From the IMG/VR virus record IMGVR_UViG_2675903352_000017, positions 1 to 6,928 of that record: a DNA stretch of 6,928 nucleotides, one strand, 5' to 3'. Origin of the DNA: a virus. Taxonomy: Duplodnaviria; Heunggongvirae; Uroviricota; Caudoviricetes. Positions 980-6,928 of the stretch are shown here, piece after piece; positions within the stretch are counted from its first letter, which is position 1; the number at the start of each line of letters is the position of its first letter. The notes below the pieces were generated by a model. That model had not been told where the DNA came from, made no database searches, and saw only the letters and a list, made by a program, of their open reading frames with translations. The translations under genes were made by a program, and so were the position numbers.

Positions 980-1383
980 GATTTATCTCCCTTAAGCATG
1001 GCTGCACGACAGGCCTCTTTGAGCACCCAGTCAACCGCGTCTTTCCATGCTCCGGTTTCGACTGGCGGATTTTCACGCTTAACCTGTTCATAGAAACGCA
1101 CTGCTTTAATCAATCCTTCTGGTGTCAGTGACACAGGTGTAGCGGTGAATAGAGGTTTAGGTGTTATCTCTGCACGTTTTGCGTATGCATCAACTGTGTC
1201 AGGATTAAACAGGATTATGTTTTCGCCGTATTCCCACGCTATCGGCTCTGCTTCCAGCGATGCCAGAGCAATTTTGAATAACTCACCCTCTACTCGTGCC
1301 ACCCCTGAATTGGGGTGGCATTTCGCAATCGCTATTTTTAATTTAGCTTCTTCGATTAATTGCTCTTTTGTTAATTCAGTCAT
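976..1383 (-). CDS. Hypothetical protein, 135 aa, first gene of the coupled operon
   Basis: Complete ORF from the track (MTELTKEQLIEEAKLKIAIAKCHPNSG...). It follows a 158-bp AT-rich intergenic region and is same-strand coupled to the 115-aa gene. No family recognised. Confidence 0.7.
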   Translation of the reverse strand: MTELTKEQLIEEAKLKIAIAKCHPNSGVARVEGELFKIALASLEAEPIAWEYGENIILFNPDTVDAYAKRAEITPKPLFTATPVSLTPEGLIKAVRFYEQVKRENPPVETGAWKDAVDWVLKEACRAAMLKGDKS

Positions 1384-1392
1384 TTTTCATTA

Positions 1393-1408
1393 CCGCCCTT
1401 TCGGGCGG
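1393..1408 (-). other. GC-rich hairpin with a GAAA (GNRA) tetraloop in the 5' leader of the 135-aa gene
   Basis: - strand RNA reads AGGAGG-CCGCCC-GAAA-GGGCGG-UAAUGAAAAAUGACU. A 6-bp GC stem (1393..1398 / 1403..1408) lies between an AGGAGG motif (1420..1415) and the start codon at 1383. A 4-codon mini-ORF (ATG AAA AAT GAC TGA, from 1390) overlaps the real start. No U tract follows, so it is not a classic terminator. Confidence 0.3.
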
Positions 1409-1541
1409 CCTCCTGATGTTTTGAGGGTGCAGGAATCCCTCCTGTTAAGGATTAAATTTTATTTACAGTGCTGAGATTAATTATTCAGATTTGAATTATG
1501 TTTTCTCTTTCACTTCACGCAGTCCTGATTGTTAATTTGGC

Positions 1542-1958
1542 TCACAGTACCACCTCCTGCAAACTTCCCTTCCAGAAAGCCAGCACGCGCTGCATAGTTT
1601 CGCTCTGACGGCACTCTCGGCAAATTATGTTCTGTCTCCTGTTGTAACGGCGTATCTCGCTATCTGGCAATGAATAAACCAGGTCGGGGTCGTTCTTCTT
1701 TTTCACTGCCGCTCTCGACATTTTTTTGCAGGCTTTTATCCAGTCCTTACGAGCCTGTTCTGAAGGAAATATTCCATGGCCTGAACCATATAGCGTGCCA
1801 CTAACTACCAGCTCTTTCGCCAGAACTTCTATCAGGTGTCTCGTTGCTCCGGTTTCATCCTCCAGTTGCTTACGTGTTTTCCTCCCATCTCTGCGCACCA
1901 GTTCCACAATACGCGCCTTCAGTTGCTCCCGATATTCAGGTGTAAAAACGTTTCTCAT
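1542..1958 (-). CDS. Hypothetical protein, 138 aa from the ATG at 1958; the longest ORF begins at 2015 (157 aa)
   Basis: Track ORF 1542..2015. The internal ATG at 1958..1956 is preceded by GGTGAGG with a 5-nt spacer and avoids a 50-nt overlap with the upstream gene, so it is the preferred start. Product MRNVFTPEYREQLKARIVELVRRDGRKTRKQLEDETG...; basic, no family recognised. Confidence 0.6.
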   Translation of the reverse strand: MRNVFTPEYREQLKARIVELVRRDGRKTRKQLEDETGATRHLIEVLAKELVVSGTLYGSGHGIFPSEQARKDWIKACKKMSRAAVKKKNDPDLVYSLPDSEIRRYNRRQNIICRECRQSETMQRVLAFWKGSLQEVVL

Positions 1959-1965
1959 AAGTGCC

Positions 1966-2727
1966 TCACCTTTCCGACACAACGCGACTGGAGGAATCGA
2001 CAATCTGTCGGACAATATCCCGGTGTTTATTCAGCTCCCGCAGCGCGGCGCAGACGCGCTCCCACTTCTGGACATGATTTTTCGCCCGGCGCAGTTCGCG
2101 GTTTGCCAAATGCAGCGATGGTAAAATCAGGTCATCCGCCCGCGTTTCGGTGAACGATGGCAGCGACTGCACAATGTCCGCCACAGTTTCTGTTTTAATT
2201 TCTTCCTGTGTTACAGTTTCCTGTGCTGGTAACGCAACACCTGCTGGCTGAGGAAAGGCTTTACCATCTGTTTCCGTTACCAATGCGGCTTTCGGCTCTG
2301 CTGGTAAATTATCGTCCGGCATGCAGTAACGAAATTTACCGTTCTGATTTACGCGAATCAGGCGACCTTTGCTGATTGCCTGAGCCAACGTTGAAGCCAC
2401 TTTGCGTGATGTGATACCGAACAGCGTAGCCAGCTCATCAGCCGTTTGTGGTCCGCGTTGTTCAATCGTCGCCGTTAAATCGCACTCTGAGATTTTCGCT
2501 ACTGTTGCCGTGGTAGTTTCTTCATGAAATTCAGCCCGGGATGCTTGTTCCTGCTGAGCATTGCTACCAGCCACACGCCAGGTGTACGCGGTTTTATCAA
2601 CGAAACCAGATTTTTTCAGTTCCCACAGCTCATTCAGTACCTCTTCACGACTGATATCAAGTCGCGCAGCAAGTTCTATGGATGTGGCCTTTCCCATCGC
2701 TTTCAGTGCGTCAAAAACAGTCTCCAT
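1966..2727 (-). CDS. Hypothetical DNA-binding protein, 253 aa from the ATG at 2727; the longest ORF begins at 2778 (270 aa)
   Basis: Track ORF 1966..2778. The internal ATG 2727..2725 is preceded by GGAGG (2740..2736) with an 8-nt spacer and removes the 29-nt overlap with the DnaC-like gene. The N-terminus ([43 protein letters not shown]) and a second segment ([32 protein letters not shown]) look like winged-helix/HTH motifs; that reading is inference. Confidence 0.65.
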
Positions 2728-2749
2728 TAAAATTTCCTCCCGGTAAAAA

Positions 2750-3496
2750 TCACTTCGTGATTCCTGGCTGGACGACATTCGGGCGCCAGCTTTCCCAGTT
2801 AAAAGTCACCCAGCGCCCGCCGTTCATGGTCATGCGATCCATAATCCTCTCGCCGAGCAACGTTTTCATGGCCTCATAGTTCAGGTTTGTCAGCATCCCC
2901 ATACTGCGCATCGATGCTGTCCGGCGATCAACAATCTGATGCAGCACCACCTGCTCGTTTTTCGTCTCACGCTGAATGCCAATTTCATCAAGAACCAGCA
3001 GATCCACTTCGCACAGTTCCCGCAAAAATTTTTCGCCTGACTGCCCGTCGTCATAGCTGGCGTGCAGGGCACTCATAACATCAGCCACAGTAACCACTAT
3101 CACTGTCTGGCCGTCTTTCAGCAGGCGATTCCCGATAGCCGCCGCCAGATGGTTTTTTCCGGTACCAGGTTTTCCGCTGAACGCGAAATTTGTGCATCCG
3201 GTCATCAGTTCATCAGCGATGGATTTCGCCTGACTTAACGCGTATCGCTGGCCGTCGTTCTGTACATGGTAATTCGCAAACGAGCATTTACGGTGCAACG
3301 GCTGGATGCCTGAGCGATTCAGAATTTTTTCCACCCGCAACTGGCGATTCAGGCGGTTGATCTCCTCGCTACGCTTCTGGCCTTCAGCAAGTTGCCACTC
3401 GCGCCACTCCGCTACCGTTCTGAATGGGGCGGTTACATGTGGCGGGGTCAGTCTGCGGATACGTTCCAGAACGCCGCCTGTCGCAATATTTTTCAT
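2750..3496 (-). CDS. ydaV: DnaC-family replicative helicase loader (AAA+ ATPase)
   Basis: 248 aa. Walker [18 protein letters not shown], Walker [10 protein letters not shown], and C-terminal [21 protein letters not shown]...[10 protein letters not shown] align along the full length with E. coli DnaC as I recall it. It follows the initiator gene after a 6-nt gap. The symbol is given from family plus synteny with Rac (ydaU-ydaV). Confidence 0.92.
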
Positions 3497-3502
3497 GGTT
3501 CG

Positions 3503-4465
3503 TTACCCCCTGAACCCCGGAGGAATTTCGGTGTCCGGTTCAGAAATATGATTCACACAACGCTGTACAGGTGAACGCCCCAGGCGGATGACCAGTTCGT
3601 CCCATTTTTCGCGGAGCTTTGACGGGCTCATGATGTTTTTTACCCAGAATGGATCCCGCTGTACCCGCCCAAACATTTCGCAAATTTGTCTGTGAGTTCT
3701 GCCATCCAGCATCCGCATTGTGCGCACGTCATTGGCCCACGCGGTCCAGTTTGGTTCTTTCGGTCGCGTGATCTCGCCATCATCGCTGGCCGCCTGCTCG
3801 TAAAGACTCACGATTCGTCCCCAGATCCACTGTGCGCACGCCAAATCTTCCTGACTTCCCCACTGGCGTTTTTTCGCACTGAACACAACCGCATCAGGGT
3901 GTCGGGTTAAAAAATCCTGTTCAGCCGTCTGCGGGTCCGGTTGCGAAGCGTCCGGACAAGAAGATCTTTTATCTGATGGATCAGATTTTAATACTGACGG
4001 ATCGGGGTCAATCATCGCCCCCCTAACCGACCGTTTTTTATCAACGGTTGATCCATCAAAATTTGACGGGTCAACCGTTGAGGGGTCAATATTTGACGGG
4101 TCAACCGTTAACGGGTCATTTTTTGCCGGGCTAATTTTTCTTTTCGGTTTATATGCCTCTCGCGCCGCCGCTGCTGCAGCTTCGAGTTTTTCCACATTAA
4201 GCCGGTAGATATTGCTTACGTTACGTCCGCCAACCTTACGCTCTTCCTTTGTCAGCCAGCCGCTTTTTTCCAGTTCCGCTATCGCCGCTTTAACCGTTGA
4301 TTCACTCTTTGCCCCAATCTGACGACGAATGGTCTCTACTGCAGGCCATGACACACCTTCATCATTGCTGTAGTCTGCAAGACGAGCCATCACTGCCACC
4401 CTGGATAAGATCATGCCGGTGAAGGCACACCCTTCCCAGACAAGACCATGAAGCTTGCTGCTCAT
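3503..4465 (-). CDS. Phage replication initiator (O-like origin-binding protein; YdaU-like by position)
   Basis: 320 aa. N-terminal winged-helix pattern typical of phage/plasmid replication initiators (ILSRVAVMARLADYSNDEGVSWPAVETIRRQIGAKSESTVKAAIAELEKSGWL). Central repetitive linker PLTVDPSNIDPSTVDPSNFDGSTVD is encoded by the iteron DNA. Sits immediately upstream of the DnaC-like loader. Confidence 0.8.
   Translation of the reverse strand: MSSKLHGLVWEGCAFTGMILSRVAVMARLADYSNDEGVSWPAVETIRRQIGAKSESTVKAAIAELEKSGWLTKEERKVGGRNVSNIYRLNVEKLEAAAAAAREAYKPKRKISPAKNDPLTVDPSNIDPSTVDPSNFDGSTVDKKRSVRGAMIDPDPSVLKSDPSDKRSSCPDASQPDPQTAEQDFLTRHPDAVVFSAKKRQWGSQEDLACAQWIWGRIVSLYEQAASDDGEITRPKEPNWTAWANDVRTMRMLDGRTHRQICEMFGRVQRDPFWVKNIMSPSKLREKWDELVIRLGRSPVQRCVNHISEPDTEIPPGFRG
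3995..4155. repeat. Putative origin of replication: iteron cluster and adjacent AT-rich tract inside the initiator gene
   Basis: Perfect 19-bp direct repeat ATTTGACGGGTCAACCGTT at 4061..4079 and 4091..4109. Related partial copies: TGACGGATCGGGGTCA 3995..4010, TCAACGGTTGA 4041..4051 (inverted relative to 4071..4081), GGGGTCAAT 4082..4090, ACGGGTCA 4111..4118. An AT-rich stretch follows at 4118..4155, and several GATC sites sit at 3979..4052. Same logic as lambda ori lying inside gene O. Confidence 0.6.
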
Positions 4466-4488
4466 AAAAAACCCCGAACACCGTGCTT

Positions 4489-4914
4489 TTAGTGCATCAC
4501 CACGGCATTTCCTGCCGGGCCACCGCGATTAATCTGGTTGAAACCAGCAATTGCCACCGCAATAAAATCATCTGCATCCCTCACCAGCCGCTCCCGCGTC
4601 TCCAGCAGCTCCCGAAAATAGGCTGAACTGTGACTGCGCATTCGGGCCACCAGCAGAGGCGGCATTGCCTTTTCGATCGCAGGTAACAACGCCTGAATTT
4701 TTTTAACCGCATCAGGGGTGTCTTTCTCCACCCAGCGGAAAATTTTCTGAGTATTGCGAGCCAGGGCTTCAGGATGGCTGTCGTCATATAATTCCGGGAA
4801 CGTCATACCCAGCTCAAAATAAGCTCGGGTTATTTCAGCCGCCGGAACTTTTTCGCCATCAGGACGCGCCCAGGCATTCATCGCCATGCGGATGTGTTCA
4901 TGCTTGATTTTCAT
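4489..4914 (-). CDS. ydaT: YdaT-like protein (proposed CII-like regulator / toxic product of the Rac early-right operon)
   Basis: 141 aa, immediately downstream of the Cro-like gene and upstream of the initiator, matching the size and position of Rac ydaT (about 140 aa). Assigned by synteny and size; I cannot verify the sequence match from memory. Confidence 0.6.
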   Translation of the reverse strand: MKIKHEHIRMAMNAWARPDGEKVPAAEITRAYFELGMTFPELYDDSHPEALARNTQKIFRWVEKDTPDAVKKIQALLPAIEKAMPPLLVARMRSHSSAYFRELLETRERLVRDADDFIAVAIAGFNQINRGGPAGNAVVMH

Positions 4915-4936
4915 GAATCATTTGCCTCTTGATGTT

Positions 4937-5233
4937 TCAGGTATGATCAAATGAGGATTTGTTACTGTCATTTAGTTGCTTCACTGACATATTCTGCGAA
5001 TAACATGCCGAACGTCGTAAATATGACCAGTCAATATCAGGACGAAGTTCTTCGCACAGAACGTCACCTCTTGTTGCACGTTCAATTGCTGGACATCTCT
5101 CTGCAGGCAATTGACGTACCCCTTTGATCCATTGATTTACGCTTGGAGGTGATACACCTAAAAGCCTAGCCATTGCTGATTGCCCACCGACAACAGCACA
5201 AGCTCGCTTGAATGAATAGTTCTCTTTTTTCAT
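4937..5233 (-). CDS. ydaS: Cro/YdaS-family HTH DNA-binding protein, first gene of the early-right operon
   Basis: 98 aa; MKKENYSFKRACAVVGGQSAMARLLGVSPPSVNQWIKGVRQLP... matches my recollection of E. coli K-12 Rac YdaS nearly residue for residue. HTH motif present. GGAG sits 8 nt before the ATG. Divergent from the repressor gene across the operator region. Confidence 0.8.
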   Translation of the reverse strand: MKKENYSFKRACAVVGGQSAMARLLGVSPPSVNQWIKGVRQLPAERCPAIERATRGDVLCEELRPDIDWSYLRRSACYSQNMSVKQLNDSNKSSFDHT

Positions 5234-5259
5234 CGAATGAACTCCAAAAACACACAGAG

Positions 5260-5289
5260 ATATTAGGCGACGCCTAATGCTAATGTCAA
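5260..5289 (-). promoter_or_regulatory. pR-like sigma70 promoter for the ydaS-ydaT-replication operon
   Basis: - strand -35 TTGACA (5289..5284), 18-bp spacer, -10 TAATAT (5265..5260). The -10 and spacer overlap operator O1. The predicted transcript start is about 20 nt upstream of the ydaS SD. Confidence 0.5.
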
Positions 5290-5329
5290 TAGGCTATGCC
5301 TAATGCAGTAAGAATAGGGATTGCCTAAT
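5262..5329. promoter_or_regulatory. OR-like tripartite operator: three 17-bp palindromic sites, consensus ATTAGGC-N3-GCCTAAT
   Basis: O1 5262..5278 ATTAGGCgacGCCTAAT (perfect inverted repeat); O2 5288..5304 AATAGGCtatGCCTAAT; O3 5313..5329 AATAGGGattGCCTAAT. Centres are 26 and 25 bp apart. The sites lie between the divergent repressor and Cro-like genes. Confidence 0.6.
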
Positions 5330-5334
5330 ACAAT
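5329..5334 (+). promoter_or_regulatory. Possible -10 element of a pRM-like repressor promoter (weak or absent -35)
   Basis: TACAAT at 5329..5334 on the + strand, about 7 nt before the racR SD AGGAG (5341..5345), with no good -35 hexamer 17 bp upstream. Resembles an activator-dependent pRM-type promoter next to O3. Speculative. Confidence 0.25.
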
Positions 5335-5356
5335 GAGCATAGGAGAATATTAAGCA

Positions 5357-5833
5357 ATGCTTAGTGGTAAAGACTTAGGCCGAGCAATAGAGCAGGCCAT
5401 TAACAAAAAAATCGCATCGGGATCCGTCAAATCAAAGGCGGAGGTCGCTCGCCACTTCAAAGTCCAACCACCATCAATCTATGACTGGATTAAGAAAGGC
5501 TCCATAAGTAAAGATAAACTTCCAGAATTATGGCGTTTCTTTTCTGATGTTGTTGGTCCAGAGCATTGGGGGCTTAACGAATACCCCATACCAACCCCCA
5601 CCAACTCAGATACAAAAAGTGAACTTTTAGACATAAACAACCTTTATCAGGCAGCCTCTGATGAAATAAGAGCGATTGTAGCTTTCCTGTTATCAGGAAA
5701 TGCTACAGAACCAGACTGGGTTGACCACGATGTTCGCGCCTACATAGCAGCGATGGAAATGAAAGTTGGTAAGTATCTGAAAGTTCTAGAATCTGAACGG
5801 AAAAGCCAGAACATCACAAAAACTGGAACTTAA
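5357..5833 (+). CDS. racR: Prophage repressor, RacR-type (cI functional analogue, HTH)
   Basis: 158 aa; MLSGKDLGRAIEQAINKKIASGSVKSKAEVARHFKVQPPSIYDWIKKG... matches my recollection of E. coli K-12 RacR in sequence and length. HTH near the N-terminus. Flanked on both sides by arrays of the same operator palindrome. Confidence 0.85.
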   Translation: MLSGKDLGRAIEQAINKKIASGSVKSKAEVARHFKVQPPSIYDWIKKGSISKDKLPELWRFFSDVVGPEHWGLNEYPIPTPTNSDTKSELLDINNLYQAASDEIRAIVAFLLSGNATEPDWVDHDVRAYIAAMEMKVGKYLKVLESERKSQNITKTGT

Positions 5834-5846
5834 ACTTATATGGTCT

Positions 5847-5876
5847 GACGGAAAACTCCTGGATTCCGTTATTTAA
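5847..5876 (+). terminator. Weak candidate terminator or stem-loop downstream of racR
   Basis: GACGGAA (5847..5853) pairs with TTCCGT (5864..5869) around a 10-nt loop, followed by TATTTAAT. Stem is short and the U tract imperfect. Confidence 0.2.
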
Positions 5877-5928
5877 TCCCTCCCATCACTTTTTTCATTC
5901 GCATCACCTATTGGGTTACGCCCAGAAC

Positions 5929-5972
5929 ATTAGGCAAAGCCTATTGACAATCAATTAGGCATTACCTATAGT
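5929..5972 (+). promoter_or_regulatory. pL-like sigma70 promoter with two overlapping operator sites (OL-like)
   Basis: -35 TTGACA 5944..5949, exact 17-bp spacer, -10 TATAGT 5967..5972. Operators O4 5929..5945 (ATTAGGCaaaGCCTATT) and O5 5954..5970 (ATTAGGCattACCTATA) are 25 bp centre-to-centre and overlap the -35 and -10. Confidence 0.6.
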
Positions 5973-6071
5973 TCCAGCATGCCACCCACCCCGCCCCACA
6001 GCACGCAGGGCAATACTTCGAGTTACCAGGCAGTGGTCAGGGGTTAAGTAGCCAGCCCGAGGCGTAAGAAC

Positions 6072-6302
6072 ATGACGGCAGGGTTCAACTTTAACTATGC
6101 AGCAGGTTTTTGTTCCGCTACCCCGGCGTTAAGGGGAAATGAGGTCAGCATGGATACTATCGATCTTGGCAACAACGAATCTCTGGTGTACGGCGTGTTT
6201 CCCAACCAGGACGGCACGTTCACCGCGATGACGTATACCAAAAGTAAAACGTTTAAAACCGAAGCTGGCGCGCATCGCTGGTTAGCAAGAAACTCTGACT
6301 GA
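6072..6302 (+). CDS. Small hypothetical protein, first ORF of the early-left operon (76 aa, or 50 aa from the internal ATG at 6150)
   Basis: Track ORF. ATG 6072 has GAGG 9-10 nt upstream; the internal ATG at 6150 has GAGG 6141..6144 with a 5-nt spacer (MDTIDLGNNESLVYGVFPNQDGTFTAMTYTKSKTFKTEAGAHRWLARNSD). Rac carries small ORFs (ydaG/ydaF) in this position, but I cannot confirm the sequence identity. Confidence 0.5.
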   Translation: MTAGFNFNYAAGFCSATPALRGNEVSMDTIDLGNNESLVYGVFPNQDGTFTAMTYTKSKTFKTEAGAHRWLARNSD

Positions 6303-6313
6303 TGAGGTTGACG

Positions 6314-6928
6314 ATGGAATTTAAAGATTTACCTACTTCAATCCAGGAGATTGCAGCACACACACTTCGTCATCGTCTGAACGAACTTGCATTGGAATCG
6401 GTAACGAAAAAAGACACTGATAATATGGCTCGTAATGTGCGCGATGCGTTTACCGGATTGTATTTCTGTGCGTCTGTAAATAAACACGACTCAGAGAGTG
6501 TGGCAAATAAAATTGCAGAAACGACAGCGCAAAACATCAATACGAAACCAACGGAAGAAGAAATTGATCAGTTTGCTCATGATGCTGGTTTAAAAAACAA
6601 GAAAGAAAAATCGCCATATGCGGGGAACATGTTTGTTTATGACAATCTCATCAGAATTCGTGGCGAAATTCCGGCGGAATACCTGGCAAGAGTCCATCAG
6701 GCATTGCTTAAAAATCTGGAAACAGAATTATTTGATGGCAACACTAACGGTTTCTTCATGGTATCAGGCCTTGAGAAAGACTGGGATGCAGAAAAACGCT
6801 GGAATGTTGCTACATGGTTATTCAGTAACAGAGCCGCTGCTCTGGAAGCTTCGGCATGTATTTGCGGCCTGTTCTTAACAGACCACAAATATAATCTGGA
6901 TGTGTACAGTTATATTTACGCTGGTTAA
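6314..6928 (+). CDS. Hypothetical protein, 204 aa from the ATG at 6314 (208 aa from the ATG at 6302, which overlaps the upstream stop as TGATG)
   Basis: Complete ORF ending with TAA at the window edge. GAGG 6304..6307 lies 6 nt before the ATG at 6314. Product MEFKDLPTSIQEIAAHTLRHRLNELALESV... is hydrophilic, with no transmembrane segment and no motif I recognise. It sits in the early-left operon driven by the pL-like promoter. Confidence 0.7.
   Translation: MEFKDLPTSIQEIAAHTLRHRLNELALESVTKKDTDNMARNVRDAFTGLYFCASVNKHDSESVANKIAETTAQNINTKPTEEEIDQFAHDAGLKNKKEKSPYAGNMFVYDNLIRIRGEIPAEYLARVHQALLKNLETELFDGNTNGFFMVSGLEKDWDAEKRWNVATWLFSNRAAALEASACICGLFLTDHKYNLDVYSYIYAG

Follow-up and report, generated by a model that had tools for sequence, protein, structure and literature searches.

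Three genes of the Rac prophage of E. coli K-12, racR, ydaS and ydaT, have been studied in detail, as has a related set in another E. coli prophage. In K-12, a racR deletion was obtained only in a ydaS-T deletion background, overexpression of YdaS inhibited growth, and overexpressed YdaS is itself toxic according to two studies (PMC5700373). The operator motif of RacR, WTAGGC-n3-GCCTAW, and its footprints come from the same strain, for which YdaS was reported not to repress racR (PMC9638921); the hexamers and spacing of the PydaST promoter (PMC9638921, PMC11879457) and the hexamers of the reverse promoter PracR4 (PMC11879457) have been mapped as well. YdaS triggers Rac excision, and it is YdaT, not YdaS, that was found to lower viability, with YdaT toxicity eased when rcsA is inactive (PMC11014345). 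Rac YdaT activates PracR4 and binds both a site called the YdaT-box and DNA upstream of the host gene rcsA (PMC11879457). The cryptic prophage CP-933P of E. coli O157:H7 has a paaR2/ydaS/ydaT locus whose YdaT is tetrameric and carries a POU-like HTH domain; its footprint covers TTGATT-N6-AATCAA where ydaS meets ydaT (PMC9986795). No toxic effect of this protein was detected by Jurenas et al. (PMC8630535), a contrast with K-12 YdaT that is explicitly noted in PMC11014345. It activates the Rac YdaT-box/PracR4 promoter but not the host rcsA promoter, and is reported not to bind its own repressor–cro intergenic region (PMC11879457). A Cro/CII interpretation of YdaS and YdaT has been argued (PMC5917428), and the summary of this literature in an earlier note on the present DNA, that racR is deletable only without ydaS-T and that toxins and Cro/CII-like regulators are both under discussion, is accurate (PMC5700373, PMC5917428).

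The DNA analysed here is a viral stretch of 6,928 nucleotides (the window), which matches part of L005, a 26-kb contig of assembly GCA_001514805.1, at 100% identity. The divergent layout that had been described for it was confirmed: ydaT and ydaS are both minus-strand ORFs at the coordinates in Table 1, racR lies opposite, and the ORF listing places 123 bp between ydaS and racR. The genes follow the lambdoid order: a repressor, then cro-like, cII-like, iteron-bearing O-like and DnaC-like genes. We consider it very likely that the RacR/YdaS/YdaT region is the CI/Cro/CII-type switch of a Rac-type lambdoid prophage, that this switch is chimeric, and that its proteins are regulators, not a toxin–antitoxin pair.

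Table 1. Genes, sites and modules of the racR–ydaS–ydaT region (positions in the window)
Feature	Position	Strand	Description
ydaT	4489–4914	minus	141 aa; CP-933P-class CII-analogue transcription factor, not the K-12 Rac allele
ydaS	4937–5233	minus	98 aa; Cro analogue
racR	5357–5833	plus	158 aa; CI-analogue repressor
YdaT-box	4904–4921	minus	ATGATTCATGAAAATCAA; overlaps the ydaT start codon
PracR4 (reverse, PRE-like; inside ydaS)	5111–5143	plus	TTGACG 5111–5116, TACGCT 5138–5143
PydaST (PR-like)	5260–5289	minus	−35 TTGACA 5284–5289, −10 TAATAT 5260–5265, 18-bp spacer
OR-like array	5263–5364		four RacR inverted repeats, WTAGGC-n3-GCCTAW motif
PL/OL-like unit	5930–5972	plus	promoter TTGACA-17-TATAGT 5944–5972 and two RacR-consensus repeats
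Rac-type immunity cassette, exchangeable	4923–5974		ydaS, OR, racR, OL/PL; breakpoints vs L004
O-like replication initiator	3503–4465	minus	320 aa; Pfam HTH_36
ydaV, DnaC/IstB-like helicase loader	2750–3496	minus	248 aa; Pfam IstB_IS21 70 bits

The earlier note had treated the three ORFs as counterparts of the K-12 Rac proteins. Alignment upheld this for RacR (157/158 residues identical, 99.4%) and YdaS (95/98, 96.9%) but not for YdaT, which shares 47 identities with K-12 YdaT in a 144-column alignment (32.6%); low identity to a Rac protein is what the note itself had named as counting against its reading. In Pfam, RacR gave only a weak HTH_17 match and no match to an S24 peptidase domain, while YdaS matched YdaS_toxin at 105 bits (cut-off 30) and P22_Cro at 35.5 bits, and also matched the Cro structure 3bd1 in the PDB (E=5e-10). 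By blastn against the Rac region of K-12 MG1655, DNA homology is confined to window positions 2278–3539, 4891–6137 and 6159–6283, and there is none over 3540–4890. The central segment, 95.4% identical at the DNA level over 4891–6137, spans racR, the intergenic region, ydaS and the ydaS–ydaT spacer, and reaches 24 nt into ydaT before it ends at 4891.

Every cis element mapped in K-12 was found in this shared part, namely PydaST, PracR4, the YdaT-box and the four operators. The sequence around PracR4 is identical to that of K-12, and the YdaT-box agrees at 18/18 positions with the footprinted K-12 site (PMC11879457). The operators had been called intact, and this proved correct: four copies of the RacR motif lie in the intergenic region (5263–5277, 5289–5303, 5314–5328 and 5350–5364, the last spanning the racR ATG), and in the nucleotide alignment their half-sites are identical to those of K-12, with substitutions confined to spacers and linkers. 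Across the whole window, at no more than two mismatches, the motif matched 7 times against 1.86 expected, a count that takes in two sites downstream of racR and that was reached in 1/200 shuffles.

The ydaT product matches Pfam family YdaT_toxin (PF06254) at 38.9 bits (cut-off 21), and is 93% identical to PDB entry 3c4r (131/141, E=9e-88) and 83% identical to CP-933P YdaT in PDB entry 8bt1 (116/140, E=5e-79). The differences from 8bt1 fall mostly in the C-terminal tetramerisation helix; residues 1–97, the DNA-binding domain, contain 8 differences from CP-933P (~92% identity). No residue differs from CP-933P YdaT in the long HTH loop and the recognition helix (…HPEALARNTQKIFRW…), and the recognition-helix segment NTQKIFRW includes the conserved Arg-Trp of the YdaT family (KIFRW motif). 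The window therefore holds a CP-933P-class YdaT behind a Rac-class RacR and YdaS and, judged by its sequence, is without the YdaT allele to which the K-12 toxicity was assigned. For DNA binding, cross-activation, non-toxicity and lack of rcsA activation, we draw on the literature on the closest alleles, and the window YdaT is 83%, not 100%, identical to the CP-933P protein from which the published activity data come.

The inverted repeat WTGATT-N6-AATCAA is present at the cro/ydaT junction and is the predicted site for the window YdaT. When the whole window was searched for additional TTGATT-N6-AATCAA sites with up to three mismatches, there was no enrichment (2 matches vs 5.4 expected), and the matches were the start-codon box and one site with two mismatches at 2344–2361. 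Since YdaT of the CP-933P class can drive the PRE-like promoter of Rac, the chimeric switch should be regulatorily coherent. The branch of the K-12 circuit in which YdaT binds over PydaST may be missing here, as CP-933P YdaT is reported to leave its own repressor–cro region unbound. An OOP-like antisense RNA was considered and rejected: the terminator scan gave one plus-strand hairpin inside ydaT (4680–4695), 1 vs 2.0 expected.

An exact-protein look-up recovered the identical YdaT, together with the identical O-like protein, behind an unrelated immunity pair in four other assemblies. The alternative pair, which belongs to a prophage adjoining ompW, comprises a P22_Cro-type gene of 71 aa and an HTH/Peptidase_S24 repressor of 238 aa. 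Compared with locus L004, which has this alternative repressor, the window is 99.1% identical over 995–4922 and 95% identical over 5975–6333, with no homology between. The left breakpoint (4922) is immediately beside the YdaT-box and the right one (5975) is 3 nt past the −10 of a promoter-like site; against K-12, the breakpoints are at 4891 and 6137. The YdaT-box itself does not differ by a single letter between the window, K-12 and L004, and its flanks are unrelated on one side or the other. From the L004 and K-12 breakpoints it follows that ydaS goes with racR in the exchangeable cassette and that ydaT goes with the replication module. The YdaT-box is the joint between the two, and the exchange of the cassette follows the classical lambdoid 'imm' substitution pattern. 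The O-like initiator is co-linear with the identical YdaT in loci L004 to L008, and travels with this ydaT allele.

This separate inheritance, in which ydaS stays with racR, ydaT stays with the replication genes and recombination occurs at the YdaT-box, argues against YdaS and YdaT being a genuine type II toxin–antitoxin pair, as does the presence of an identical YdaT behind unrelated cro genes. The names of both proteins point the other way, since the Pfam families are called YdaS_toxin and YdaT_toxin and the RefSeq/PGAP product names, already in place alongside racR, are 'toxin YdaS' and 'toxin YdaT family protein'. Both nevertheless bind DNA through an HTH, have defined operators and have had their structures solved (PMC9986795), the published experiments speak against such a pair (PMC8630535, PMC5700373, PMC5917428), and neutralisation of one protein by the other is denied in PMC8630535 and PMC5700373. 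We regard a toxin–antitoxin pair as extremely improbable.

The same joint recurs in other viral DNA. A survey of viral contigs, which required an exact match to the 24-nt YdaT-box-plus-start sequence and so shows that combinations exist, not how frequent they are, gave at least 119 loci. Among the matches listed, 24 YdaT proteins belong to the K-12 class, 95 to the CP-933P/window class and 3 to others, counts that also include the reference loci and the window. The Cro-like ORFs upstream form at least 12 clusters at 60% identity among the matches listed, most of which occur with two or more YdaT classes; the partners of the Rac-YdaS cluster there are 14 K-12-class and 3 window-class YdaT proteins. 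At one locus (L087, 5883–6053), the Cro-like ORF upstream of a window-class ydaT is 80% identical to YdaS over its C-terminal 61 residues; RacR was not detected at this locus, and the ORF may be a recombinant cro.

Among 5426 complete E. coli genomes, the K-12 trio was found at ≥80% coverage in 555 and the window trio in 529–530, so the arrangement of racR-ydaS with a CP-933P-class YdaT is common, not rare. About 26 of the window-trio genomes, among the best matches, are ~95% identical and include O121:H19 STEC and porcine ETEC, with strain N18-04097 a further carrier of the trio at this level of identity; the remainder are ~87–90% identical, with O157:H7 at 87% among those sampled. No record in the complete E. 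coli genomes or the phage collection covered ≥80% of the whole window in one place. Among the matches listed, the junction sequence stays the same whether it adjoins one or another of at least 12 unrelated Cro/repressor cassettes, and also between YdaT classes that are only ~33% identical. Tentatively, and with somewhat more doubt than confidence, we propose that the ydaS/ydaT junction (the 24-nt box and first codons) is a standardised lambdoid interface, serving both as an operator for any YdaT allele and as a recombination joint at which immunity cassettes and cII-plus-replication modules are shuffled.

Beyond the four intergenic operators, two further repeats of the RacR consensus lie downstream of racR. 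The first, TAGGCAAAGCCTA at 5931–5943, is a perfect match ~100 bp past the racR stop, and the second, TAGGCATTACCTA at 5956–5968, departs from the consensus at one position. The pair adjoins the −35 and runs into the −10 of the promoter at 5944–5972, which agrees with the sigma-70 consensus at 11/12 positions, and the PL-like block with its two extra repeats is conserved in K-12 (L001, around 6041). In K-12, ydaF, ydaG, kilR and their neighbours rose 40–70-fold upon expression of the C protein, which lowers RacR (PMC11014345). The RacR papers cited here describe the four intergenic operators only, so we describe the 5931–5972 block as probably an OL/PL analogue, to which RacR would be predicted to bind. 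Downstream of this promoter and beyond the right end of the window, the parent contig carries defence-type genes (L005 1680–7286): a GajA split into pieces of 488 aa and 176 aa, a GajB shortened to 367 aa, which the following gene overlaps, a PDC-S71 candidate of 554 aa (E=4e-111), and a 335-aa protein with a weak JetD-like match.

On the other side of the cassette, YdaV is 94.8% identical to K-12 YdaV, and the O-like initiator is 19.6% identical to K-12 YdaU. Iteron-like tandem repeats with a period of 15/30 and a unit of about TTGACGGGTCAACCG occupy 4041–4130 inside the O-like gene, where they encode a repeated DPS..VD peptide. The repeats resemble an origin, which would lie inside the initiator gene as it does in lambda. 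The O-like protein and K-12 YdaU (285 aa), otherwise unrelated, share their last residues (…PD..IPPGFRG), and homology to K-12 DNA resumes inside the 3′ tail of the initiator gene (window 3503–3539), beside the DnaC-like gene; the initiator tail is a second conserved joint and possibly a loader contact surface. Farther along, a DUF1627 (YdaW-like) gene at 1966–2778 on the minus strand is full length (Pfam 316 bits), while its K-12 copy is annotated as a truncated pseudogene. The early-right operon of the window prophage is less decayed than that of K-12 Rac.

These genes bear on whether the region could be the decayed remnant of a prophage switch that no longer regulates anything. Rac of K-12 is cryptic and defective in replication (PMC11014345), and the source prophage of the window is known from a 26-kb contig only, both of which would fit a remnant. 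In the window locus, nevertheless, no ORF is broken and all mapped promoters and operators are conserved, the DUF1627 gene has kept the length that it lost in K-12, and the module set in L004 runs on into antiterminator, holin, lysozyme and Rz-like genes. A remnant of this kind is very improbable in our view. At the left end of the window, Rfam identified a sok antitoxin RNA at 84–250 on the minus strand (110 bits, gathering score 59); it is the sole Rfam match in the window, with nothing within 4489–5233. No hok ORF was seen in any frame of 1–330, so the hok toxin gene presumably lies past the left window edge.

In the CI/Cro/CII-type switch that we propose, RacR would keep the strong leftward promoter PydaST shut off and would autoregulate racR, and would probably also occupy the two repeats at the PL-like promoter just downstream of racR. 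If RacR were to drop, PydaST would transcribe ydaS, and YdaS would dampen PydaST and favour the lytic or excision state. Readthrough from PydaST would continue through ydaT and the O-like initiator gene, which contains the iteron origin, into the DnaC-like loader gene and those after it. As a tetrameric CII analogue, YdaT is predicted to bind the YdaT-box over its own start codon and to activate PracR4 inside ydaS, and transcription from PracR4 back towards racR would re-establish repression. The switch would thus be a natural chimera, with the Rac immunity cassette joined at the YdaT-box to a CP-933P-class ydaT-plus-replication module.

The earlier note had gone further, and expected the addiction-like dependency of K-12 to apply here. 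On such a reading, racR could not be deleted since de-repressed YdaS and/or YdaT would be lethal or would arrest growth in their own right. PydaST, the operators, YdaS and RacR indeed hardly differ from those of K-12, where racR is deletable only without ydaS-T and excess YdaS, 97% identical to the window protein, inhibits growth (PMC5700373), so that YdaS might impose a dependence like that of K-12. Full-length racR was also found at every listed locus that has a full Rac-type ydaS and room for racR; this constant company of an intact racR, among the loci listed, would suit an addiction module, but is equally expected for a CI/Cro cassette. The YdaT of the window, however, is only 32.6% identical to that of K-12 and belongs to a class for which no toxicity was found (PMC8630535) and which cannot activate PrcsA (PMC11879457), and a K-12-like addiction inference is therefore unsafe here. 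Furthermore, the toxicity of K-12 YdaT is eased by loss of rcsA, and YdaS was found to be non-toxic in the same study (PMC11014345). Taken with the YdaT allele present, we consider a K-12-type addiction module unlikely, and by analogy with CP-933P, the K-12 killing route, from Rac YdaT through host rcsA to filamentation, is not expected.

A dependence on racR is nonetheless plausible, as for any prophage repressor, through products other than the K-12 YdaT route, and we think it somewhat probable that loss of RacR would be harmful for some reason. Among the genes of the de-repressed operon are a full-length DUF1627 gene, one for a DnaC-like loader, and one for an initiator that looks intact and contains iterons. 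When a trapped lambdoid origin fires in situ, the outcome is known to be lethal, an effect called 'replicative killing' in lambda. If racR should prove indispensable, it is more likely that de-repressed replication from the trapped origin, products of the PL operon or an excess of YdaS would be the cause.

All components of this region and the logic of the circuit have already been published; what is new is the specific combination and the YdaT-box as a shared recombination joint, both of them small additions, and the locus is an ordinary, well-studied, textbook lambdoid immunity region. Its interest lies in the 'toxin' labels on ydaS and ydaT and in the ease with which findings from K-12 are extended to every racR locus, although E. 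coli genomes that combine racR-ydaS with a CP-933P-class YdaT are about as many as those with the K-12 trio (~530 vs ~555/5426). Strains with a CP-933P-class YdaT are ready-made material for finding out which of YdaS, YdaT and de-repressed replication makes racR essential. If the junction is the standardised interface suggested above, the window would be a natural allele swap that joins Rac immunity to a non-toxic YdaT, and YdaS and YdaT could be separated as causes of racR essentiality without engineering.

Compared with known systems, the window shares RacR, YdaS, the four operators, PydaST, PracR4, the YdaT-box and the PL-like promoter with two extra RacR sites with K-12 Rac, and differs from it in YdaT (32.6% identical), in the initiator (19.6%) and in an intact DUF1627 gene. 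With CP-933P it has in common the class of YdaT and an identical recognition helix, and the site is of the same type and at the ydaS/ydaT junction in both (TTGATT-N6-AATCAA in CP-933P, ATGATT-N6-AATCAA in the window). Unlike CP-933P, it has RacR instead of PaaR2, the Rac YdaS as its Cro analogue, and no paaA2-parE2 genes after the repressor. The window proteins have no detectable sequence homology to CI or CII of lambda, RacR is without the S24 self-cleavage domain that the alternative repressor of L004 has, and there are four OR sites in the window compared to three in lambda. YdaT also differs in acting ~190 bp from its promoter (PMC11879457), as does YdaS in being reported not to repress racR (PMC9638921). 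The likeness to lambda is one of organisation: a repressor and a cro gene diverge, several operators between them overlap promoters, a further group of operators appears from its sequence to lie at a PL-like promoter, and a cII-like activator follows cro and is itself followed by O/P-type replication genes, with the origin inside O. As in lambda, the cII analogue drives a reverse promoter located within the cro gene, and the cassette is bounded exactly like an imm substitution.
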